IMG/VR virus record: IMGVR_UViG_3300036766_002288
Span: 32,001-96,000 of that record
Reading direction: 5' to 3' (one strand)
DNA: 64,000 bases
DNA from: a virus
Positions within the stretch are counted from its first letter, which is position 1. Every line of letters starts with the position of its first letter. Shown piece by piece: positions 23,020-62,349 of this stretch. Under the pieces are notes generated by a model. The model had not been told where the DNA came from. It saw only the letters and a list, made by a program, of their open reading frames with translations, and searched no databases. The position numbers and the translations under genes are program-made.

Positions 23020-24657
23020 TTATGTAGTAATCAACGATTCAGATTTGTGCTTCATACTAGCTTTAATTAAGCCATCAAACAAAGGTGCAGGTGCATTCAA
23101 GCGACTCTTAAATTCTGGGTGCGCTTGAGTTCCAACAAAGAAAGGATGTGATTCAGACTCTAATTCCATCATTTCCACTAAGTTAGTCACAGGATTAGTC
23201 CCAGAAACTTTAAACTTACCTAACGTGGCAAGTGAAGAAACATATTCAGAATTAACCTCATAACGATGGCGATGCCGTTCACTTATTAACTTCTTTTTAT
23301 ATAAACACTGGACAATACTATCTTTGACTAAATCACACTCATACGCACCCAATCGCATTGTTCCAGATTTCTTTTTAATGCTCTCTTGCCCTTCTACAAA
23401 GTGAATTACAGGATGCTTGGCATCTTTATCAAACTCTATACTGTTCGCACCTTCTAGCATACAAATATTACGTGCAACCTCAATTACGGCACATTGTAAG
23501 CCAAGACAAATGCCTAAGAAAGGTATTTTTTTCTCTCTTACATACTTAATTGCTCTGATCTTACCTTCAATACCAGAAGAATCAAACCCACCTGGAACTA
23601 TTATGCCATCTACATCTTCGAAATATTTCCAGACACCACGCATGTCTTTGGGTTGTTCAAGTTCCTTTGAGTTAATCCAACCAATTGTTACTTTTACTTC
23701 ATTTGCAACGGCAGCATGATATATGGCTTCTTTCAACGACAGATAAGCTTCGTCACAATTATCGTATTTGCCTACAATGGCTATATTAATGGTTGGCATG
23801 TCTACGTTGCCAACATACTTCTCAACCAAGTCACGATACTTGTGTATTCTGCATCCGTTTCTTTTCAGATGGAATTTGTCTACGATTAAATCATCAATGT
23901 GCCTTTCATAAAACTCAATTGGCACTTGATAAATTGTCTTAACATCTGGTGCGTCAAATACAGCTTCTCTAGGCACGTTAGTTAAATGTGAAATCTTATC
24001 CAGAATCTTTGGTGGAATTTCCCTGTCTATTCTGCAAAGAAGGATATCAGGCTGAATACCAAAAGATTGTAATTCTTTAATACTATTCTGCAATGGTTTG
24101 GTTTTAAATTCCTTGATGGTAGGAATCCACAAAATTGGGGCTACCATAACAACCAATACGTCATTCCAGTTTTTTTGCTTAAATTGCCTGATGGCTTCAA
24201 GATAAGGCCCGCTTTCAAGATCACCAACAGTACCACCTATTTCGCATATAACAATATCCGATTCCTTTCCTAACTGTGTAAGTCTATCCTGAATCTTATC
24301 TGTGAGATGTGGAATGATTTGTACAGTCTGTCCTAAATATTTTCCATCTTCTTCTTCAGTTAGCAACTCTTTGTATAAAGTCCCACTTGTGAGAATGTTT
24401 TTTGATGAAACTTCGATGCCTATAATACGTTCATAATGACCTAAATCGAGGTCAGTTTCGGTACCATCATCACATAGGAAACATTCCCCATGTTCACGGG
24501 GCGCAAGAACCCCAGCGTTGGTATTGAAATAAGGATCAAATTTGATTGGCTGCACTTTAAGTCCTCTTAAACTTAAGAGAAACCCAATAGATGCAGCAGC
24601 AATTCCCTTACCACCACCAGATATTACACCGCCAAGAACAATAATATACTTACACAT
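23020..24657 (-). CDS. pyrG: CTP synthase
   Basis: GGVISGGGKG, DGTETDLDLGHYER, GICLGLQ, ERHRHRYE, QAHPEF. Confidence 0.97.
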   Translation of the reverse strand: MCKYIIVLGGVISGGGKGIAAASIGFLLSLRGLKVQPIKFDPYFNTNAGVLAPREHGECFLCDDGTETDLDLGHYERIIGIEVSSKNILTSGTLYKELLTEEEDGKYLGQTVQIIPHLTDKIQDRLTQLGKESDIVICEIGGTVGDLESGPYLEAIRQFKQKNWNDVLVVMVAPILWIPTIKEFKTKPLQNSIKELQSFGIQPDILLCRIDREIPPKILDKISHLTNVPREAVFDAPDVKTIYQVPIEFYERHIDDLIVDKFHLKRNGCRIHKYRDLVEKYVGNVDMPTINIAIVGKYDNCDEAYLSLKEAIYHAAVANEVKVTIGWINSKELEQPKDMRGVWKYFEDVDGIIVPGGFDSSGIEGKIRAIKYVREKKIPFLGICLGLQCAVIEVARNICMLEGANSIEFDKDAKHPVIHFVEGQESIKKKSGTMRLGAYECDLVKDSIVQCLYKKKLISERHRHRYEVNSEYVSSLATLGKFKVSGTNPVTNLVEMMELESESHPFFVGTQAHPEFKSRLNAPAPLFDGLIKASMKHKSESLITT

Positions 24658-26376: not shown

Positions 26377-29300
26377 TCATATCGCTTTTTTGAAATCAAC
26401 TGGACACGCACCACCTGCACATTCAACATGCGCAAAATCTACGTCTTCTTCTAAAACCTTCTTGATCTTGTTCAAGGTATCTTCATATTCTGCCTTTGTA
26501 ACAGGTTGTTCTGGAAGATACTCATAACTAGATTTTTCTTCTTGGGGCATGATTGAACAACACTTAACCAATGGCTGATACTTCTGCACCGTCTTTGCAA
26601 AGTCCCTATAGCATACCTTGGCAGGCAAATACTTCAAAGTATAAGATATTTGATTAGCGGTATCCTTTTTCAAAAGCACGCCATTCTCATCGACACCATA
26701 CAACCAATACTTTTCCCCTAACATTATCCATTGATATTGTTCTTCTGGTGTAGCTTCTGCCGCTGTAACTAACTTGTTGCCCATGCCTAATTCAACAATG
26801 ATAGGCATTGTCGGAAAGCCTACTATAGTTGTATTCTGGTACTTTTTAAGTTCTCTAATTGGATATCCAGCCTTCTTGTATGTCTGAATGAGTGGGTCAT
26901 TACTACTGAATTGCACCCATCTCATGAACCATAACATTGAAGGTAAGTGCCACGCCTCTGTAAGCCCGAATAATTTTGAATTAGTTCCTGCTGGCTTTAA
27001 GGTTGTGTCTGTATGTGGCGGGGACATACCATATTTCTTTGAGTAAATCTCTGCCTCTTCCTGAACTGCCCTTTTGAATCTGGCCAAAGTCATCCAGAAG
27101 GCTTTAGATTTTTCCTCATCAATTAAATCTCTAAATCCTAACTTAAAGAACTTCCATGCAAATTCATGAATGCCAGTCATGCCAACACCAATTCTGTTGG
27201 TACGTAGTACCTCTTTCTTGTAAAGAGCATCCATTGTATTAACGCGAATAAGTGCCCTGGCAACTGCTCTAAACGCTTCTTCAGCTTCATCTAGACTGTC
27301 GGCATGGAATGGCACCAAATCACCAATGGTACAGTATGCTCCAAATAATGCGATTGCTATCTCGCCACAGTTATGTGCCCTTATGCCATTTGCATCAAAT
27401 TCATGCACAGTTTCAACACCACAGTCATAAACATCTTCATCGCCAATATGTTCAATAGATTCAATCTTGGCAACAAAGTTTTCCTTATAAATACCACGCT
27501 CAATAGAATTGATAGCAGCATTCAAAGCCGATGCTTTATCAGGCTCACGAAACCCTATTAAATCTGAAAACTGCAAAAGATTATCTTTACTAATGTGCAA
27601 TTCGTGAGACGGTTGGCACCAATACAATTTTTCTCCACCATTACCATCAGGCATTTTCTTGTAACCAGCTTCTTTTCTATCTTTGTAAACAGAAGATATA
27701 ATGCCCAATCTTGAAAGCATTCTTTGTATCGTATAGAGTCTTGGTAAATTAGACTGTGAAAGGCGCACACTTATACCTTTGTTTTTATTTTTACAAACAG
27801 TACCGTCCGCGTCGAACAATCCACCTAGCAATCCGCAGTAAAAATTACTGCCCATTTCTTCAACGGATTTCAACAGATTTTTAGTCAATGGCTCTAGCAA
27901 TGGTTCAGCTAACTTGTTTAATGCAACACAACTAATCGTTCTGCTGTCGTTAATTTCGTTTAATTGACCGCCTTCAAAATTAGCCTTAACCTTCATGTCT
28001 AGCGACTCAATACATTTCAAGGTCGCATCTATCATGTGATCTTTATTCTCACCCCAGAATCTTAAATAAGTGCAATATTTTTCTGGATTAAATCCACCAT
28101 CACCAATTATTTCACCAATCAACCACCCTTCGCCAAAAGTGCCATTGCCATCCCATCGAACATTACGCTGATTGGCAAGAACTAAATGATCGCCTATATT
28201 CAAATCTTTTACTTCAACCCATGAATGCTCATAGTTATAGCCACCATGCAATTTTGAACGTTTGTTTTTCTCAACCAATAATGGATGATTATCAGTTGCC
28301 TTCAAAGTATAGCCACGATTCGTCTTAATCAGATACACGGGCTTGCGACCTGTCTTCCAAAATCCAGAGGCATTGAATGATTTGCCATTGACGATAGCAT
28401 TAAATGGCTTGTTGATTAAATCAGCAACTTGTCTTGGACCATCAGATGTTTGCACCCATGTATCTGCTGTGACACAAGGATTACAGATCATGTAATACTG
28501 TTTTTTCAATGCTTTGCGTAGCAGCCGATTCATGTAAAGATTGGTATCGTCATTAAGCTGATACTTCTTACTACCAATTAAATCACCTTTAGAAAGTTCT
28601 TCTAACCCTTCACGATTCTCATTTAATTTATCGACGTTAATTAGTCCAGGCTCACCAGTGCTGTCTGCATAAGCTGCTGATGTAACTAATTTGAAAACTT
28701 TTCTGGCGTGCTTGGCAAGTGGAGTATGATAATCTGGATTGCTTCTTTTCAACTCTATTAGTTTCCAGAATTCCTTATCAACCATTACGCTGTTGTTGGA
28801 ACTCCATAAGAACCCATTGGGTTTAACAACGTAGCCTTCTCTTAGTTCTATTATTTCTTCAACACTCTTGTCGTAATATTCAATTGGACGCTTAATGGTG
28901 ATGAAGTCGAAAACTGTTACGTCTTTCCAGAACTTAGTGGACATTCTTGCCGCACGTCTTGCCCCACCTACGAGGACACATTCTGCGAAATAGTGGTCAA
29001 TATACATCGTTTGCATGAACGGCGTAAGTCCTGCGCCCTTGAGGGTCAAAGCCTTATAAAATGCATTCATTAAAGGAACGGGACCACTTGCTGGCCTATT
29101 TTGCATCCCTTTGATTGGGGTGCCCTTCGCTCTCACCTTAGAAAAATCTAGAATTAGTAGTTTATCTTTGTGTATTTTCTCAAACGCGGCATTTTCCCAT
29201 ATCTCTAATGCCTTTGCCCAACCTTCTCTAGTATCTTCAACGACATGCCATAATGTATCCTTGCCGCTACCATATTTATGTTTTGCATCCCGCACAGACT

Positions 29301-29739
29301 CATGTGCCATATAGTCATAGTCTGGGTGCGATTCATCTATTACACAACGTACATTTGGGGCATTATCCCAATTTACGAGCATGATATCATCATCATAGGA
29401 ACGGCCAACACCAGAGCCGTTCATTAACAAATAGAACAATGCAAAACTTGTAGCACTAGTAGAACAGTTTGTAAAAACTTCAATATTACGATTTGGTTGT
29501 GTTTCATCACCATGTTGCAGGTGCCTGCCGCTCATCAATATGGTGGCTTTTGATAGGTGCTTATAAAGAACTTTGTATTCTTGCTCTTGTTCTTCTTTTG
29601 TCCTGCATAATAAGGAATTGCCTAAAGCAACACGATGAGCAACGTCATCCCAACTCTCCCATTTGCCATTAGCTTTTTTTCTTAAAATGGTACGCTCTGC
29701 GACCGCCTGGCCCATACCAGGGTGAAAATTCTTCGACAT
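26377..29739 (-). CDS. nrdJ: class II (B12-dependent) ribonucleotide reductase containing an intein
   Basis: FTNCS, VLVGGARRAA, GEPGLIN, NP|CGEI, TLKPAGT; no small subunit adjacent. Confidence 0.88.
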   Translation of the reverse strand: MSKNFHPGMGQAVAERTILRKKANGKWESWDDVAHRVALGNSLLCRTKEEQEQEYKVLYKHLSKATILMSGRHLQHGDETQPNRNIEVFTNCSTSATSFALFYLLMNGSGVGRSYDDDIMLVNWDNAPNVRCVIDESHPDYDYMAHESVRDAKHKYGSGKDTLWHVVEDTREGWAKALEIWENAAFEKIHKDKLLILDFSKVRAKGTPIKGMQNRPASGPVPLMNAFYKALTLKGAGLTPFMQTMYIDHYFAECVLVGGARRAARMSTKFWKDVTVFDFITIKRPIEYYDKSVEEIIELREGYVVKPNGFLWSSNNSVMVDKEFWKLIELKRSNPDYHTPLAKHARKVFKLVTSAAYADSTGEPGLINVDKLNENREGLEELSKGDLIGSKKYQLNDDTNLYMNRLLRKALKKQYYMICNPCVTADTWVQTSDGPRQVADLINKPFNAIVNGKSFNASGFWKTGRKPVYLIKTNRGYTLKATDNHPLLVEKNKRSKLHGGYNYEHSWVEVKDLNIGDHLVLANQRNVRWDGNGTFGEGWLIGEIIGDGGFNPEKYCTYLRFWGENKDHMIDATLKCIESLDMKVKANFEGGQLNEINDSRTISCVALNKLAEPLLEPLTKNLLKSVEEMGSNFYCGLLGGLFDADGTVCKNKNKGISVRLSQSNLPRLYTIQRMLSRLGIISSVYKDRKEAGYKKMPDGNGGEKLYWCQPSHELHISKDNLLQFSDLIGFREPDKASALNAAINSIERGIYKENFVAKIESIEHIGDEDVYDCGVETVHEFDANGIRAHNCGEIAIALFGAYCTIGDLVPFHADSLDEAEEAFRAVARALIRVNTMDALYKKEVLRTNRIGVGMTGIHEFAWKFFKLGFRDLIDEEKSKAFWMTLARFKRAVQEEAEIYSKKYGMSPPHTDTTLKPAGTNSKLFGLTEAWHLPSMLWFMRWVQFSSNDPLIQTYKKAGYPIRELKKYQNTTIVGFPTMPIIVELGMGNKLVTAAEATPEEQYQWIMLGEKYWLYGVDENGVLLKKDTANQISYTLKYLPAKVCYRDFAKTVQKYQPLVKCCSIMPQEEKSSYEYLPEQPVTKAEYEDTLNKIKKVLEEDVDFAHVECAGGACPVDFKKAI
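27370..28476 (-). mobile_element. 369-aa intein with LAGLIDADG endonuclease
   Basis: starts CVTADTWV, ends VYDCGV...AHN followed by extein Cys; LIGEIIGDG and LGGLFDADG motifs. Confidence 0.92.
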
Positions 29740-34477: not shown

Positions 34478-34505
34478 TTGACAAGTCAGAAATTCATGCT
34501 AAGAT
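34478..34505 (+). promoter_or_regulatory. sigma70-type promoter of tRNA region
   Basis: TTGACA-16nt-TAAGAT with TGn extended -10. Confidence 0.75.
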
Positions 34506-34946: not shown

Positions 34947-35029
34947 GTAGCGTTTGGGCATTGGCAAGCCCCACTGACTGTAAATCAGCCGCCCTATGGG
35001 CATTGTAGATTCGACTCCTGCACGCTGCA
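34947..35029 (+). tRNA. tRNA-Tyr(GTA)
   Basis: GTAGCGT/ACGCTGC-A, CTGA-CTGTAAA-TCAG, GCCC/GGGC variable arm. Confidence 0.8.
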
Positions 35030-35190: not shown

Positions 35191-35742
35191 ATGAAAAATT
35201 TAGAAGTCGAAATTATGACATTAAGGGAAGATGGGCATTCTTACAACGCCATAGCAAAAAAACTAAATTGTTCTAAAGGCACAATTAGTTATTATTGCGG
35301 TGAAGGACAAAAACAAAAAAGTAAAACAAGGATTCAGAATAGAAGAAAAAATACTGTAATTTCGAAACGTGTTGAAAACTTTCAAATTGATAGAAAAATA
35401 AGAGACAAATCTGAAGATTTTCAACGGGAAAGAATAATTGTTAAGAGTAAAACTCGTTTAGGCAAACGGTCTTTGACATTTACTTGGAGAGATGTAATTG
35501 ATAAATTCGGATGGGAAACAATATGTTATCTAACTGGAAGGGCTATAAATTTAAGAGAGCCGAAAACTTATCAGTTTGACCATATACATCCTTACGGCAA
35601 AGGAGGAAGTTCAACTTTAGATAATTTAGGTATTCTTATTAAAGAAGTAAATCAAGCTAAGGCAGACATGACCGTTGAAGAATTTTTAAATCTATGTAAA
35701 GACGTTTTGGAATATAATGGCTATGAAGTAAAACGTTTGTAA
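35191..35742 (+). CDS. HTH-HNH homing endonuclease
   Basis: N-terminal HTH (GHSYNAIAKKLNCSKGTISYY); CYLTG...FDHIHP...NLG...NQAK. Confidence 0.88.
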   Translation: MKNLEVEIMTLREDGHSYNAIAKKLNCSKGTISYYCGEGQKQKSKTRIQNRRKNTVISKRVENFQIDRKIRDKSEDFQRERIIVKSKTRLGKRSLTFTWRDVIDKFGWETICYLTGRAINLREPKTYQFDHIHPYGKGGSSTLDNLGILIKEVNQAKADMTVEEFLNLCKDVLEYNGYEVKRL

Positions 35743-35760: not shown

Positions 35761-35834
35761 GGCACAGTAGGCAATTAGCAGACCACTTTCGCTTAAAACG
35801 AGAGATGCTGTCAGTGCAAATCTGACCTGTGCTA
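35761..35834 (+). tRNA. short-variable-loop tRNA, Leu anticodon TAA
   Basis: GGCACAG/CTGTGCT-A; CTTTCG-CTTAAAA-CGAGAG; T-loop TGCAAAT. Confidence 0.7.
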
Positions 35835-35838
35835 CTTT

Positions 35839-35912
35839 GGCGACGTAGGCAATTAGCAGACCACTTAGACTCAGACTCTGAGATGCTGTCAGTGCAAGTC
35901 TGACCGTCGCTA
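35839..35912 (+). tRNA. short-variable-loop tRNA, Leu anticodon CAG
   Basis: GGCGACG/CGTCGCT-A; CTTAGA-CTCAGAC-TCTGAG; T-loop TGCAAGT. Confidence 0.7.
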
Positions 35913-35918
35913 CTTTTT

Positions 35919-35992
35919 GGCAACGTAGGCAATTAGCAGACCACTTTCTTTCAAACGGAGAGATGCTATGGGTGCGAGTCCCATCGTTGCTA
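35919..35992 (+). tRNA. short-variable-loop tRNA, Leu anticodon CAA
   Basis: GGCAACG/CGTTGCT-A; CTTTCT-TTCAAAC-GGAGAG; T-loop TGCGAGT. Confidence 0.7.
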
Positions 35993-35994
35993 CT

Positions 35995-36175: not shown

Positions 36176-36922
36176 ATGGCTATTTTCCTAGAACATGTGA
36201 ATAAGCGAGATTTAAATAAAAGATTATTTGAAACTTTTGGCAAGTACAAAGTCTTCATTGTAGACGGCCAAGCCATTAGAAAACTTAATCTAACTGACCA
36301 TGAGTTTACTGATTCCGCCATCCATGCTACCTTTCCTAAATTAATACCAGATAAGGAAATATGGATAGATGATGTAATCAAACCGAATGAAAGATTTATA
36401 TTGATAAGTAATTTACTATCATTATACAAGTATTTAAGTAAAGAATCCTTGGACAAAGCTTATGATAAAGCATTGAAAAAAGAAAAGTCGATGAGGGAAA
36501 AGGTAGACAACGTAAGATTACATCCAGAAAAAACGAATGAAAGAGCGTCACCGAAGGTTTACAAGAGTCTATATGGTAAGATTGGAGATGTTAAGATTTG
36601 GTTGGTAGATGGGGAATACGTAAGAGATAAGTATAAGACAGATTATACCGAAGGTGGACACGATTACGTATACAAATGGATTCCACACAATGAAATTTGG
36701 ATTGAGTCCACAATGCATAAGTCTGAAATGCCTTTGATCGTTTTACATGAATTTGTGGAAAGAACATTGATGAAGACCAAGGGAATAGAGTATGATAAGG
36801 CACATACGATTGCATCGAAAGTGGAATTTGCAAAAGAAGATAAGTTTGATAGGAACGATGTTTTATCCATGACTGAGGATAAGGCATTGAAGATGGACGA
36901 GACGCGAGTGGTTAGCAACTGA
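36176..36922 (+). CDS. hypothetical protein with internal duplication (VDG..IR/VR...IP..EIWI), HE-x2-E motif
   Basis: two similar ~110-aa halves; 3' end overlaps tRNA-Ser. Confidence 0.7.
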   Translation: MAIFLEHVNKRDLNKRLFETFGKYKVFIVDGQAIRKLNLTDHEFTDSAIHATFPKLIPDKEIWIDDVIKPNERFILISNLLSLYKYLSKESLDKAYDKALKKEKSMREKVDNVRLHPEKTNERASPKVYKSLYGKIGDVKIWLVDGEYVRDKYKTDYTEGGHDYVYKWIPHNEIWIESTMHKSEMPLIVLHEFVERTLMKTKGIEYDKAHTIASKVEFAKEDKFDRNDVLSMTEDKALKMDETRVVSN

Positions 36923-36977
36923 TTTTGAAAATCAGGGGACCGAAAGGTTCTGTGGGTTCGAATCCCATCTCGATCCG
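36895..36977 (+). tRNA. tRNA-Ser(TGA) with bulged acceptor stem
   Basis: GGACGAG/CTCG-A-TCC-G; CTGAT-TTTGAAA-ATCAG; long arm. Confidence 0.75.
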
Positions 36978-37115: not shown

Positions 37116-37640
37116 ATGAAAGAACAAATATTAAAACTCCGTGCAGAAGGTTTGTCTTATAGGGAAATCTGTGCCCGATTAGACTGCTCAAAAAGTGTAG
37201 TGTCCTACCATTGTGGGGATGGACAAAAAGTAAAAACTAGGATTAGGGCACAAAAAAGACGAGGCAGGGCGGTTGTAGATAATAAAATTTATAGATTCAA
37301 AAATAAAAAAGCCTTGAGAGACAAAACGAACGATTTCCAACGAAGAGAAGGGGGCAAGCTTAAAATTAGAAAAATTATTTTTAATTATGAAGATGTAATG
37401 CAAAAATTTGGAGAAACCCCTATATGCTATTTAACGGGAAGAGAAATAAATTTAGAAGACACAAAAAACTATCACTTTGACCATATTATACCAGCAACGC
37501 GCGGCGGCTCAAACGATATAGATAATTTAGGACTAGCGTGTAAAGAAGCAAATAAAGCTAAGTCAGATATGACAATAAATGAGTTTATACAAATTTGTAA
37601 AGAAGTATTAGAGCATAATGGTTACAGGGTAATTAAGTAA
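37116..37640 (+). CDS. HTH-HNH homing endonuclease (paralogue of 35191)
   Basis: GLSYREICARLDCSKSVVSYH; CYLTG...FDHIIP...NLGLACKEANKAK. Confidence 0.88.
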   Translation: MKEQILKLRAEGLSYREICARLDCSKSVVSYHCGDGQKVKTRIRAQKRRGRAVVDNKIYRFKNKKALRDKTNDFQRREGGKLKIRKIIFNYEDVMQKFGETPICYLTGREINLEDTKNYHFDHIIPATRGGSNDIDNLGLACKEANKAKSDMTINEFIQICKEVLEHNGYRVIK

Positions 37641-37734: not shown

Positions 37735-37811
37735 GGCGCAGTGATGCAACCTTCGGCAGACATTCTTGACTTAGAATCAAGATTATATGGGTTCGAATCC
37801 CATCTGCGCTA
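37735..37811 (+). tRNA. short-variable-loop tRNA, Leu anticodon TAG
   Basis: GGCGCAG/CTGCGCT-A; CTTGA-CTTAGAA-TCAAG; variable loop ATTAT. Confidence 0.75.
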
Positions 37812-37827
37812 GTATAATAGTGAAAAT

Positions 37828-37910
37828 GCGGTAGTGGCGGAACGGTATACGCGCTTGCTTGAGGTGCAAGTCCCTTAAGTGGGATGTGGGTTCGACTCCC
37901 ACCTACCGCA
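37828..37910 (+). tRNA. tRNA-Leu(GAG)
   Basis: GCGGTAG/CTACCGC-A; CTTGC-TTGAGGT-GCAAG; long arm. Confidence 0.9.
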
Positions 37911-37912
37911 CT

Positions 37913-38155
37913 ATGAAAACTACATATTATCGACAATGCAAATTGCAGAAAAAGAACACCTTCCAAACCAGCTATATTCCAGAAGAATTTGCTGTTATGA
38001 ATAAGATTATTAAACTACGTGACAACAACGTATGGGATGATGGCTGGAAGGTCATCGCAGTTAGTTCTTCACGGCACGCAGATGATAACCTGCCTGACTC
38101 TCATTCTTCAATTAAGGCACATCGTAGGGCAACTGGTGATTCACAAAGGAAATAA
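37913..38155 (+). CDS. hypothetical protein
   Basis: ATG after tRNA; in frame with ORF-track 37859. Confidence 0.6.
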   Translation: MKTTYYRQCKLQKKNTFQTSYIPEEFAVMNKIIKLRDNNVWDDGWKVIAVSSSRHADDNLPDSHSSIKAHRRATGDSQRK

Positions 38156-39263: not shown

Positions 39264-39749
39264 TTGATGAGAAAAAGAAAATGGAATGACGAGCAATTAA
39301 TAGAAGCTGTTAAAACAAGCAAATCGGTGATGGAAGTATTGAAAAAAATTGGCTTAGGTTTAAGTGGTGGCTCCCATGCTTTGGTAAAAATGAGGATTAA
39401 ACATCTTAAAATTGATAATTCTCATTTTACAGGAAAAGGATGGTGCAGAGGGGAAAAGCACGAGGAATTCATTAAGCGAGTACTTCAGTATCCTTTAGAA
39501 CAAGTTTTAGTCAGAGATTCAACTTATCAGAACACACATGCCTTGAAAAAAAGACTTATAAAAGAAGGATTATTAATAAACGAATGTTGTAATTGTAAAC
39601 TAACCACATGGCTCAATGAGCCTATCAGTTTACAATTACATCATAAAGATGGAGATAGATGTAATAATTTGATTGGAAATCTATCAATACTATGTCCAAA
39701 TTGTCATAGTCAAACATCTACATTTGCAGGTAAGAGTAAAAGAAAATAA
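39264..39749 (+). CDS. HNH homing endonuclease
   Basis: CCNCKL...LQLHHKDGDRCNNLIGNLSILCPNCHSQT. Confidence 0.9.
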   Translation: MMRKRKWNDEQLIEAVKTSKSVMEVLKKIGLGLSGGSHALVKMRIKHLKIDNSHFTGKGWCRGEKHEEFIKRVLQYPLEQVLVRDSTYQNTHALKKRLIKEGLLINECCNCKLTTWLNEPISLQLHHKDGDRCNNLIGNLSILCPNCHSQTSTFAGKSKRK

Positions 39750-39751
39750 AC

Positions 39752-39832
39752 GGCCAAGTGGCGGAATGGTATACGCGGCACACTCAAAATGTGTTGTCCT
39801 TGGGCATGTGGGTTCGACTCCCACCTTGGCTA
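39752..39832 (+). tRNA. tRNA-Leu(CAA)
   Basis: GGCCAAG/CTTGGCT-A; GCACA-CTCAAAA-TGTGT; long arm. Confidence 0.92.
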
Positions 39833-40779: not shown

Positions 40780-40861
40780 GGCCAAGTGGTGGAACGGTAT
40801 ACACAGCAGACTTAAAATCTGCCGCCCGTTGGGCTTGCGGGTTCAACTCCCGCCTTGGCCA
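40780..40861 (+). tRNA. tRNA-Leu(TAA)
   Basis: GGCCAAG/CTTGGCC-A; GCAGA-CTTAAAA-TCTGC; long arm. Confidence 0.92.
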
Positions 40862-46379: not shown

Positions 46380-46910
46380 ATGAAATACACCAAGGAACTA
46401 CTTGAGGCCATAGTAAAAGAAAGCTTATCAGTAGCCCAAGTTATAAAGAAATTAGGACTAAAACAAGCTGGTGGTACGCATCATTACATTTCAAAAAAGC
46501 TTAAGTGCTTTGAAATTAATGTTGAGCATTTTACTGGACGCGCAAGTAACCACGGAGACATGCATAAAGGTGGCCCAGCTAAAAGAACGTGGCAAGAAAT
46601 ACTAGTTTTAAGAGAAGATGGTAAAAGACAAAGAGCATTTGTATTAAGACGTGCATTGATTGAATCTGGAAGCAATTACGAATGCAGTATATGTAATATT
46701 AAAGAATGGTTTGGCAAGACAATAATTCTAGAAGTAGACCATCTAAATGGCGATTATTGTGATGACAGAAAAGAAAATATAAGATTTATGTGCCCGAATT
46801 GTCATAGTCAATCACCTAAATATTGTGGCAGTAAGGGTTACACAACTATAACTAGCACTGCCAAATCGCAGAAAGAAAGAAGGAAGAGAGTACAGTTGGC
46901 CAAGTGGTGA
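46380..46910 (+). CDS. HNH homing endonuclease (paralogue of 39264)
   Basis: CSICNI...LEVDHLNGDYCDDRKENIRFMCPNCHSQ; stop lies inside downstream tRNA. Confidence 0.9.
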   Translation: MKYTKELLEAIVKESLSVAQVIKKLGLKQAGGTHHYISKKLKCFEINVEHFTGRASNHGDMHKGGPAKRTWQEILVLREDGKRQRAFVLRRALIESGSNYECSICNIKEWFGKTIILEVDHLNGDYCDDRKENIRFMCPNCHSQSPKYCGSKGYTTITSTAKSQKERRKRVQLAKW

Positions 46911-47001
46911 AATGGCATACACGCAGGTCTTATTGGTTAAACAACCAGCAATAGAAGCCTGTGCCCGTAAGGGCGTGCGGGTTCAAGTCCCGCCTTGGCC
47001 A
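46898..47001 (+). tRNA. tRNA-Leu (TAG if spliced) with 21-nt insertion in anticodon loop
   Basis: GGCCAAG/CTTGGCC-A, intact D/T/variable arms, CAGGT/GCCTG stem enclosing a 28-nt loop. Confidence 0.75.
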
Positions 47002-49713: not shown

Positions 49714-49837
49714 GGCCGAATAGTCTAACGGTATGGCGGTAGAATTACATTACGTGGCTTTGGCTGAAAATGCCGATATTATAGTTTCCACATAATCCCT
49801 AATCTACAGATGGCGGGTTCAATTCCCTCTTCGGCCA
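49714..49837 (+). tRNA. tRNA with 52-nt insertion in anticodon loop (identity uncertain; Val(TAC) if spliced at 37/38)
   Basis: GGCCGAA/TTCGGCC-A; D-loop AACGGTA; GTAGA/TCTAC stem enclosing 59 nt; T-loop TTCAATT. Confidence 0.7.
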
Positions 49838-61170: not shown

Positions 61171-62349
61171 ATGGACAGAATTAAGACTACTCCCCGTAAA
61201 GATTGGCAAAAAACCGTAGAGTCACAGGGACTTTACTACCACACCATTCCGAATCATCAACCTACCTTTAACCCTGCAAATCCAGAAAACACTAACCCTC
61301 AAGAAAAAGACCGTGTTTATTGGGATGAAAGTGCATATTATCAATTCTCTTCCAGAGAAGTCGATGAAATTGAAGAATGCACTTATTGGTTAAACAAAAT
61401 CTGTCTTGAAGCAGTCGATCACATCATAGAAAACAATCTTTTCGACAAAGTTGGTGTGCCCCCTGCATTCGTAGAATGGATTAAGCAAAGTTGGGAAAAC
61501 GACGAACATACCATCTATGGCAGATTCGATCTTTGGTATAACGGCAACGAACCGCCTAAGCTCTTGGAATACAATGCTGATACTCCTACAGGGCTACTTG
61601 AAGCATCAGTCGTGCAATGGCATTGGATGAAGGATACACAAGAGTTTTTCGATCAATATAACAGCATCCATGAAAAATTGATTGAAATCTTCAAGACTCT
61701 GAAGAATGAATGGGAGGGTAGGTTCTACTTTGCCGCCATTGCTCAGAATCTTGAAGATTATATGACAGTGACCTATCTCCGTGATGTAGCAATACAAGCA
61801 GGTTGGGACACTGAATATATCAACATGGAGGACTTAGGTTGGGATAAAACTCGGGAAAGATTCGTTGATGCTAAAGAACGAATGATCTTTAATTGTTTCA
61901 AGTTATATCCTTGGGAATGGATGTTAAAAGAAGAATTCGGTCAGCATTTATTGAAGAACCGTTGTCGTTGGATGGAAGCCCCTTGGAAGACTCTCTTAAG
62001 CAACAAGGGTATTTTGCCAATTCTATCAGACCTTTATCCTAAGAGTGAATACTTGTTGAAAGCTTCGTTTGAACCGCTAAACTGCAAGTATGTCAAGAAG
62101 CCAATTCATGGGAGAGAAGGTGCTAATTTAGAAGTTATTGAAAAGGATAAGACGCTCATCAAGACAGAAGGGCCTTATACTGGACCTGTTGTCTATCAAG
62201 AATATAAACAATTGCCTAATTTTGATGGCAATTATCCAGTAATTGGTAGTTGGATGGTCAATGGCTATGCGTGTGGTATAGGGATTAGGGAAGATGTTAA
62301 TCCAATAACTCAAAACACTAGTAGATTTGTCCCACATGTTTTCTCGTAA
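61171..62349 (+). CDS. glutathionylspermidine synthase family ATP-grasp protein (YgiC/YjfC-like)
   Basis: YGRFDL, LLEYNADTPTGLLEAS, FKLYPWEW, LSNKGIL, KKPIHGREG. Confidence 0.92.
   Translation: MDRIKTTPRKDWQKTVESQGLYYHTIPNHQPTFNPANPENTNPQEKDRVYWDESAYYQFSSREVDEIEECTYWLNKICLEAVDHIIENNLFDKVGVPPAFVEWIKQSWENDEHTIYGRFDLWYNGNEPPKLLEYNADTPTGLLEASVVQWHWMKDTQEFFDQYNSIHEKLIEIFKTLKNEWEGRFYFAAIAQNLEDYMTVTYLRDVAIQAGWDTEYINMEDLGWDKTRERFVDAKERMIFNCFKLYPWEWMLKEEFGQHLLKNRCRWMEAPWKTLLSNKGILPILSDLYPKSEYLLKASFEPLNCKYVKKPIHGREGANLEVIEKDKTLIKTEGPYTGPVVYQEYKQLPNFDGNYPVIGSWMVNGYACGIGIREDVNPITQNTSRFVPHVFS

Follow-up and report, generated by a model that had tools for sequence, protein, structure and literature searches.

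In the textbook view, bacterial tRNA-Leu always carries a long variable arm, and the tertiary contact between G18 and Psi55 at the tRNA elbow is essentially invariant. Bacterial leucyl-tRNA synthetase (LeuRS) ignores the anticodon and need not recognise the long arm; what it reads is the Leu-type D-loop core, U8:A14 and, in most systems, A73. The LeuRS of Streptomyces coelicolor leucylates the type I tRNA-Leu(CAA) of that organism, as does human mitochondrial LeuRS, while that of E. coli does not; U8:A14 matters for charging of this tRNA, and deleting G18/G19 or U55/C56 hardly alters it (Fan et al. 2019, NAR, PMC6614811). Natural tRNAs without G18, G19, U55 and C56 are known among the non-proteinogenic tRNA-Gly of staphylococci, which act outside translation (PMC4574755), while phage tRNAs escape tRNA-targeting defences by changes in the anticodon loop (van den Berg et al. 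2023, eLife, PMC10264068). A preliminary description of the locus discussed here had named mitochondrial tRNA-Leu and tRNA-Pyl as precedents; the Streptomyces tRNA is the nearer one.

The genes concerned lie in a window of 64,000 nucleotides, bases 32001-96000 of a 187-kb IMG/VR record which, by the CheckV estimate, holds ~37% of a viral genome. The proteins of the record are of the T4-like giant myovirus type, and its tRNAs, as called with ARAGORN and Rfam, are almost all Ser, Leu or Tyr tRNAs. Arrays likewise restricted to Leu/Ser/Tyr, some with the addition of Phe, occur in four relatives (L004, L005, L196 and L223), and in these, as in the window, Leu is often represented by both short-arm and long-arm versions. 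The best promoter-like site at the head of the array, located by consensus scan only, occupies 34478-34505 on the + strand. No + strand terminator-like site was returned by the consensus scan between it and position 38000, which makes co-transcription of the array plausible. An HTH-HNH homing endonuclease gene (Pfam HTH_38 and HNH_4; 35191-35742, + strand) ends 18 nt upstream of the first short tRNA, and similar genes are scattered through the array at 37116-37640 and 39264-39749.

Canonical long-arm tRNA-Leu genes, called by ARAGORN and Rfam, are also found on the + strand of the array. A GAG gene at 37828-37910 is a member of the phage Leu set, while a CAA gene at 39752-39832 and a UAA gene at 40780-40861 duplicate short copies with the same anticodons. 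The sole CAG tRNA detected in the window is a short one, and ARAGORN's sole UAG call is a short gene beginning at 37735. Rfam adds tRNA-like genes missed by ARAGORN at 46898-47001, 49714-49837, 36895-36976 and 34947-35029; two of these four are over-long, at 104 and 124 nt, probably through interruption, and the others are a long-arm Tyr(GUA) gene and a Ser(UGA)-like gene with a weak match to the tRNA-Sec model (32.6 bits, below that model's cut-off). Elsewhere in the window are a B12-dependent ribonucleotide reductase gene (26377-29739, minus strand), split by an intein with a LAGLIDADG endonuclease domain, the CTP synthase gene pyrG (23020-24657) and a glutathionylspermidine-synthase-like gene (61171-62349). 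Neither LeuRS (PF00133, PF13603) nor a CCA-adding enzyme (PF01743) gave a match in the 187-kb record, which at ~37% of the genome does not amount to absence from the phage; a synthetase or modifying enzyme could be encoded outside it.

The three genes at the centre of this analysis stand in tandem on the + strand, with the anticodon UAA at 35761-35834 (35761-35835 in ARAGORN), CAG at 35839-35912 (35839-35913) and CAA at 35919-35992 (35919-35993). ARAGORN, the Rfam model RF00005 and direct reading of the sequence agree with the preliminary description that these are Leu-anticodon tRNAs of 74 nt without the long arm: a variable arm of more than 10 nt with a stem, as in canonical type II tRNA-Leu, is absent from each. 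The further traits reported there, G1:U72, A73, a 5-nt variable loop (AUGCU) and a TGC T loop, can be read in every copy, the T loop taking the form UGC(A/G)A(A/G)U. The segment U8-A9-GGCAAUUAGCAGACC-A is identical in all three, and the 7-nt anticodon loop contains U33. At the conserved positions, A18 and G55 are found instead of G18 and U55, with G19, U54 and C56 kept. Spacers of 4 and 6 nt separate the genes, and CCA is not encoded.

Another element of that description, compensatory change from copy to copy, is confirmed for acceptor pairs 4-6, for the anticodon stem in its lower three pairs and for the T stem, which reads GUCAG/CUGAC or AUGGG/CCCAU. Watson-Crick pairing in the D stem is limited to G10:C and G11:C, alongside a C.A mismatch. 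The anticodon stem measures 6 bp in each copy, as had been claimed, but its top pair, C26:G44, is invariant in 97 of 98 aligned homologues, so that this pair is supported by conservation and not by covariation. Minimum-free-energy (MFE) folding of the single sequences returned no cloverleaf (z -1.3 to -1.65), and the structure must therefore be judged on homologues. It had been asked beforehand whether standard models would score the genes as ordinary tRNAs. RF00005 assigns 37.0, 35.4 and 34.9 bits to the UAA, CAG and CAA genes, over its gathering cut-off of 29 bits and far under the 57-60 bits of the long-arm neighbours, and the match to the UAA gene appears only under a more permissive run.

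A fourth short-arm tRNA-Leu (UAG), at 37735-37811 on the + strand, belongs to a sister sub-lineage (51.5 bits with RF00005). It had been described as short-armed yet retaining GG/TTC, which is correct; it also has a 3-bp D stem, G1:U72 and A73, and in gene comparison resembles the chromosomal type I tRNA-Leu of Actinomycetes.

The 232-nt block of the three genes gave no blastn match in 50,697 phage records, and Megablast with 15 kb returned a sole match, to an unrelated tRNA-Leu in Phage Phass-1. Relatives of the three genes were found only with degenerate D-arm patterns, while members in Microbacterium phages were found by blastn with a consensus-like family member. Some 39 pattern matches in non-Planctomycete genomes, together with most metagenome matches, were chance occurrences in coding DNA and were discarded. 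There are 111 distinct family members, from uncultured phages, cultured Microbacterium phages and the chromosomal tRNA arrays of Planctomycetota; pattern-matched relatives occur in more than 70 species genomes of the latter and on other IMG/VR phage contigs. Among those of 122 pattern-matched tRNAs that ARAGORN could type, every anticodon is a Leu anticodon (UAG 54, CAG 32, CAA 14, UAA 10, GAG 6).

Alignment of 98 distinct members (A1) strongly supports the cloverleaf: 98.6% of cells are paired, both-side changes occur in 16 of 20 pairs, none of 500 shuffles equals this, and no slid register comes close. Besides C26:G44, the invariant features are two D-stem pairs, U8, A9, A14, the loop AUG(C)U and A73, and U33 and a purine at 37 are retained in the anticodon loops. 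From the family alignment a covariance model (R1) was built, which scores the UAA, CAG and CAA genes at 84.9, 81.3 and 82.7 bits and the 37735 gene at 52.6 bits, generic tRNAs lying at or below ~55 bits. The genes are not peculiar to this phage; they fall in a widespread type I tRNA-Leu family whose members are annotated as tRNA-Leu in cultured actinophages. The sister form, to which the 37735 gene belongs, is also present on the chromosomes of Actinomycetes (from a sample of 151 genomes, in which G006, G024, G033, G039 and G052, flagged as unpublished, were counted but support no claim), as 73-74-nt tRNA-Leu(CAA/UAA) with the D arm GGCC-AAYNGGCAGA-GCC. Relative to it, the D stem of the family is one pair shorter and the anticodon stem one pair longer.

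These homologues bear on the question of decay. Were the genes degenerating duplicates, their loop changes being neutral damage, one would expect low generic scores, the loss of two near-universal bases and redundancy with long-arm genes, all of which are seen. The stems, however, are all held by compensatory changes, between the copies as well as across 98 homologues. This makes pseudogenes the least credible of the explanations weighed here, and supports the view that the genes are paralogous, structurally maintained tRNAs rather than decay products.

Several variants were encountered alongside the family. The CAG gene at 35839-35912 is the orthologue of a UAG gene in two close phages (L001:504-577 and its counterpart in L002), from which it differs at 3 of 74 positions; one of these is wobble base 34, an anticodon shift from UAG to CAG. 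In four Planctomycete genomes a family member of 93-95 nt (L048:7210-7302, L081:2038-2132, L082:4597-4689 and L106:2993-3087, minus strand) carries, in place of the anticodon loop or within it, a conserved insert of ~20 nt that forms a hairpin (CUCGGGCACCGAC...GGUCG), and ARAGORN can assign it no anticodon; the insert could be an intron, or the whole a tRNA-derived regulatory RNA. At L059:408-479 and L101:4144-4213 (both minus strand) a family tRNA has kept its 5' portion as far as the anticodon stem's 3' strand, beyond which the sequence is unrelated; integration or recombination at this tRNA gene may have left such remnants. Phage arrays with family Leu tRNAs (L016, L031, L033, L035, L036) encode a tRNA-Tyr(GUA) of only 78-80 nt, where ~83-85 nt is usual for the long-arm tRNA-Tyr of bacteria, so that shortening of the variable arm may extend beyond Leu. 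Finally, ten Planctomycete arrays (L044, L047, L048, L097, L101, L118, L137, L146, L150, L156) contain a tRNA-Met(CAU) of 69-71 nt with an odd, very short D arm (of the type GGGCC-AGUGCUCA-GCC) and UGCGAC T loops.

Assigning an amino acid to the three genes is the central concern. We estimate at roughly 0.7 the probability that they are Leu-accepting tRNAs serving translation, an estimate made from sequence comparison. Firstly, the D loop, previously called Leu-like with G18>A, merits that name: the AAYNGGCAGA of the family is that of the canonical long-arm tRNA-Leu of Planctomycetes and of the chromosomal type I tRNA-Leu of Actinomycetes, and the three genes match it apart from G18>A. Secondly, a complete phage genome of 226 kb (G009; CheckV 100%) encodes 39 tRNAs covering 19 amino acids, in which all five Leu anticodons are borne by short tRNAs of 74-75 nt and the Ser tRNAs are long-armed. 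No LeuRS is encoded in this genome; the short tRNAs thus fill its Leu slot and must use the host enzyme. Within the stretches examined of L001 and L002, the short copies are likewise the sole UAA, UAG and CAA tRNAs, next to one long-arm GAG. The Planctomycete chromosomes are less informative. That their short copies might be the sole CUA/CUG decoders was considered and rejected, as a full canonical long-arm Leu set is present in Singulisphaera (G001) and Gimesia (G003), where the short gene is an extra copy inside a tRNA array and the long-arm set lies elsewhere; those genomes are therefore no proof of Leu identity.

Only LeuRS, SerRS and AlaRS ignore the anticodon, and by the identity rules the remaining synthetases would reject Leu anticodons. 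A class I body is nonetheless unusual for a bacterial tRNA-Leu, and might in principle present Leu anticodons while charged with another amino acid, in the service of deliberate mistranslation or recoding. We regard such mis-decoding as very improbable. The family lacks the G3:U70 that would address AlaRS (0/98) and has neither the long arm nor the G73 that would address SerRS; its D arm is of the Leu type, and a homologous type I tRNA has been leucylated experimentally. The codons of the phage are in keeping with charging by Leu. Against five bacterial PyrG homologues, to which overall identity is 41%, the pyrG positions with UUA, UUG and CUG codons have Leu (33-40%) or hydrophobic residues, and those with CUU and CUC codons follow the same pattern. 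Leu codons thus occupy Leu or hydrophobic positions whichever codon is used, be it read by a short or by a long tRNA, and, in this small sample of 3 to 18 codons per type, offer no hint of recoding. UUA and UUG account for 57% of the phage's Leu codons, which fits the presence of a short and a long tRNA for both, and with CUG the share is 63%.

We propose that the three genes encode leucine-accepting tRNAs on a class I body, without the long arm and with the D stem shortened and the anticodon stem lengthened by one pair each. They would probably be transcribed together with the rest of the Ser/Leu/Tyr array, excised by RNase P and a 3' nuclease, given their CCA by a host enzyme and charged by the host LeuRS, and would then decode UUA/UUG and CUG. 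As E. coli LeuRS fails on the S. coelicolor type I tRNA-Leu, their function would hinge on the LeuRS of the host. In the elbow, A18-G55 would take the place of G18-Psi55 with G19:C56 retained, and the L shape would on that account probably be preserved. Counting against such a role, the phage already has UAA and CAA long-arm tRNAs, which makes two of the three genes redundant; the generic scores of 35-37 bits, the two-pair D stem and the missing MFE cloverleaf also weigh against it.

The same redundancy, canonical long-arm genes of the array already serving two of the three anticodons, would suit RNAs that are tRNA-like but have no part in translation, whether as decoys for a host nuclease or modification enzyme that targets tRNAs or as aminoacyl donors kept off the ribosome. 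An altered elbow would suit them too, since it is a property of the staphylococcal tRNA-Gly (PMC4574755). Against this, G19:C56 is retained and 18 and 55 change together, which indicates that the elbow is preserved and not lost. The family, moreover, furnishes the entire Leu set of a complete phage with 39 tRNAs. U33, a purine at 37, five Leu anticodons and covarying anticodon stems would all be needless in a decoy. We judge a non-translational role improbable, if less so than mis-decoding, and the evidence from sequence and analysis points to charging with Leu in preference to either.

The elbow itself was examined across the 111 distinct members, of which 99 have G18/U55, 11 have A18/G55 and one has G18/C55; neither A18/U55 nor G18/G55 occurs among them. 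G55 is therefore found in 11 of 11 A18 members and in 0 of 100 G18 members (Fisher 2e-15, on sequences that are phylogenetically non-independent). Scanning metagenomes for the A18 form yielded one copy each in L223 and L213, as well as L196, a 4-kb contig in which A18/G55 family members cover all five Leu anticodons. In L001 and L002, a D loop with AG goes with a UGC T loop in the UAG copy, and GG goes with UUC in the UAA and CAA copies. T stems among the A18/G55 members are of at least four different kinds. Conversely, the CAA gene at 35919 and its orthologue in L001 (584-657, G18/U55) have the T stem AUGGG/CCCAU in common and differ at both 18 and 55. The 18/55 changes are thus visibly independent. 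Neutral decay would hardly keep two loop changes always paired, across four or more T-stem contexts as well as in further tRNA families, nor leave a contig such as L196 with five Leu anticodons, all A18/G55.

The coupling of 18 and 55, unbroken in 111 members, recurs in those other families. A UGC T loop is present in 57 of the 2014 unique tRNAs collected. Mapping position 18 through pairwise alignments with the nearest U55 relative proved too noisy for Thr and Met and was replaced by alignment per isotype and a scan for the column of highest mutual information with position 55. In Ala, Met and short Leu the column of the first G in the D-loop GG comes out on top; in Thr it ranks third, after two T-stem columns which mark lineage. 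An A in this D-loop column accompanies G55 in 12 of 12 Ala, 18 of 18 Thr, 12 of 12 Met and 9 of 10 short Leu tRNAs, the sole exception being a Leu(CAA) in L061 with GG and UGC. Single G55 examples for Ile and Phe obey the AG/UGC rule, and the lone Gln UGC example is very divergent from its nearest U55 relative. Among tRNAs with UUC, GG is missing from the D region in only 4 of 1859, and G19 and C56 are kept always. The preliminary description had read G18>A and U55>G as a paired change that suggests a remodelled elbow, and these comparisons bear out a compensated change, indicating that it is a true tertiary covariation and, as judged from the alignments, that the A18/G55 elbow is a recurrent trait of array tRNAs beyond Leu.

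Two side observations concern these sequences. Ala, Thr, Met, Ile, Phe and Gln genes with UGC T loops were seen at Planctomycete loci between L041 and L157 (for example L041, L046, L058 and L146) and at L196:2952-3026, and these show AG in the D loop, bar the poorly aligned Gln. In alignments A1 and A2, position 57 is A in 10 of the 11 A18/G55 Leu members and G in most G18/U55 members; G55 tRNAs of non-Leu isotypes mostly keep G57.

The natural reading is that A18-G55 would stand in for G18-Psi55 as a tertiary contact. On chemical grounds, Psi55 cannot form where 55 is G, nor Gm18 where 18 is A. What the swap is for, if anything, is less evident. It may be a neutral, near-isosteric exchange in Leu decoders, spread among tandem paralogues by gene conversion rather than by adaptation, and we give this somewhat less than an even chance. 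Such conversion is indicated by the UAA gene at 35761, whose entire T arm (GUCAG-UGCAAAU-CUGAC) is that of its neighbour; the L002 orthologue of this gene has GUGGG-UUCGAGU-CCCAC instead. The altered elbow is confined in the window phage to short Leu tRNAs, its other tRNAs keeping GG/TTC, so the swap is no genome-wide strategy; and the charging of type I tRNA-Leu is known to tolerate elbow changes. Its recurrence in unrelated families of mobile arrays (Ala, Thr, Met, Ile, Phe) fits neutrality less well, as does its presence in 57 of 2014 unique tRNAs, which is frequent for two near-universal positions.

Alternatively, and in our estimation unlikely though worth stating, A18-G55 may be a general alternative elbow, selected in the tRNAs of phages and mobile arrays, which would keep the L shape while hiding the tRNA from host factors that act on the T and D loops. 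Were this true, such tRNAs would be concealed from TruB (Psi55), from TrmH (Gm18) and from T-loop-cutting tRNases or defence systems. The short Leu tRNAs would then amount to a defence-proof supply of Leu, doubly unlike the tRNA-Leu of the host in arm and in elbow.

Whichever of these origins applies to the swap, the three genes as Leu-accepting tRNAs bear on both textbook rules. The family, which is mostly phage- or array-borne, breaks the long-arm rule, and its A18/G55 subset breaks the G18-Psi55 rule in a strictly compensated manner. The short arm and the swapped elbow are widespread in phage and mobile tRNA arrays and barely described: the literature on short-arm tRNA-Leu of Planctomycetes and phages and on tRNA arrays yielded nothing beyond Fan et al. 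2019, and no description of a natural A18/G55 covariation was found in it. Relative to the print found, what is new is how widely the family extends among phages and mobile arrays, the combination of 2-bp D and 6-bp anticodon stems and, above all, the compensated A18-G55 elbow. The latter provides a natural double mutant with which to test the purpose of Psi55, Gm18 and the 18-55 contact, and the genes are a concrete candidate for phage tRNAs designed unlike those of the host. It may also be predicted that LeuRS enzymes which charge type I tRNA-Leu are far commoner than the single Streptomyces case, a matter of relevance to the design of orthogonal tRNA/synthetase pairs. The practical effect on annotation is small, because pipelines already call these genes tRNA-Leu.

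Set against known systems, the genes differ least from those of Actinomycetes and their phages. tRNA-Pyl resembles them in its 6-bp anticodon stem and in the loss of the canonical G18/Psi55 bases. Its anticodon, however, is CUA, its variable loop measures 3 nt, its D loop is tiny and a single nucleotide separates the acceptor stem from the D stem, whereas the window genes have Leu anticodons, a 5-nt variable loop, a U8-A9 linker and a D loop of at least 9 nt, and are not related to it. Human mitochondrial tRNA-Leu(UUR) is like the family in its short variable loop, its A73 and its charging by a LeuRS of bacterial type, but no sequence kinship of the family with mitochondrial type I tRNA-Leu was found, and mitochondrial tRNAs are structurally relaxed in general. 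The staphylococcal tRNA-Gly are, similarly, natural tRNAs without G18/U55 (PMC4574755), unlike which the window genes keep G19:C56, have Leu anticodons and show covariation of 18 and 55. The phage tRNAs that escape defences by anticodon-loop changes are similar in differing from host tRNAs at conserved positions, and suggest a possible rationale for the swap (PMC10264068); no elbow-directed nuclease is linked to the window phage.

The type I tRNA-Leu of S. coelicolor and other Actinomycetes shares with the family a 5-nt variable loop, A73, U8:A14 and the D loop AAYNGGCAGA, and coexists with long-arm tRNA-Leu as in the window phage. The actinomycete genes have a 3-bp D stem, a 5-bp anticodon stem and G18/U55, like the window gene at 37735, whereas in the three genes the D stem is 2 bp and the anticodon stem 6 bp, with AUGCU and A18/G55; R1 gives the actinomycete genes 57-62 bits and the three genes 81-85. 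Two annotated tRNA-Leu genes of Microbacterium phage Zooman (OK040793, genes 114 and 117) are family members by R1 (80.6 and 74.4 bits) and agree with the window genes in D arm, in the 6-bp anticodon stem and in the loop AUGCU. Zooman differs in keeping GG/TTC and in its large array for many amino acids, where that of the window phage is of Ser/Leu/Tyr only. The three genes thus belong to the type I tRNA-Leu kind that is known in S. coelicolor and annotated in actinophages.
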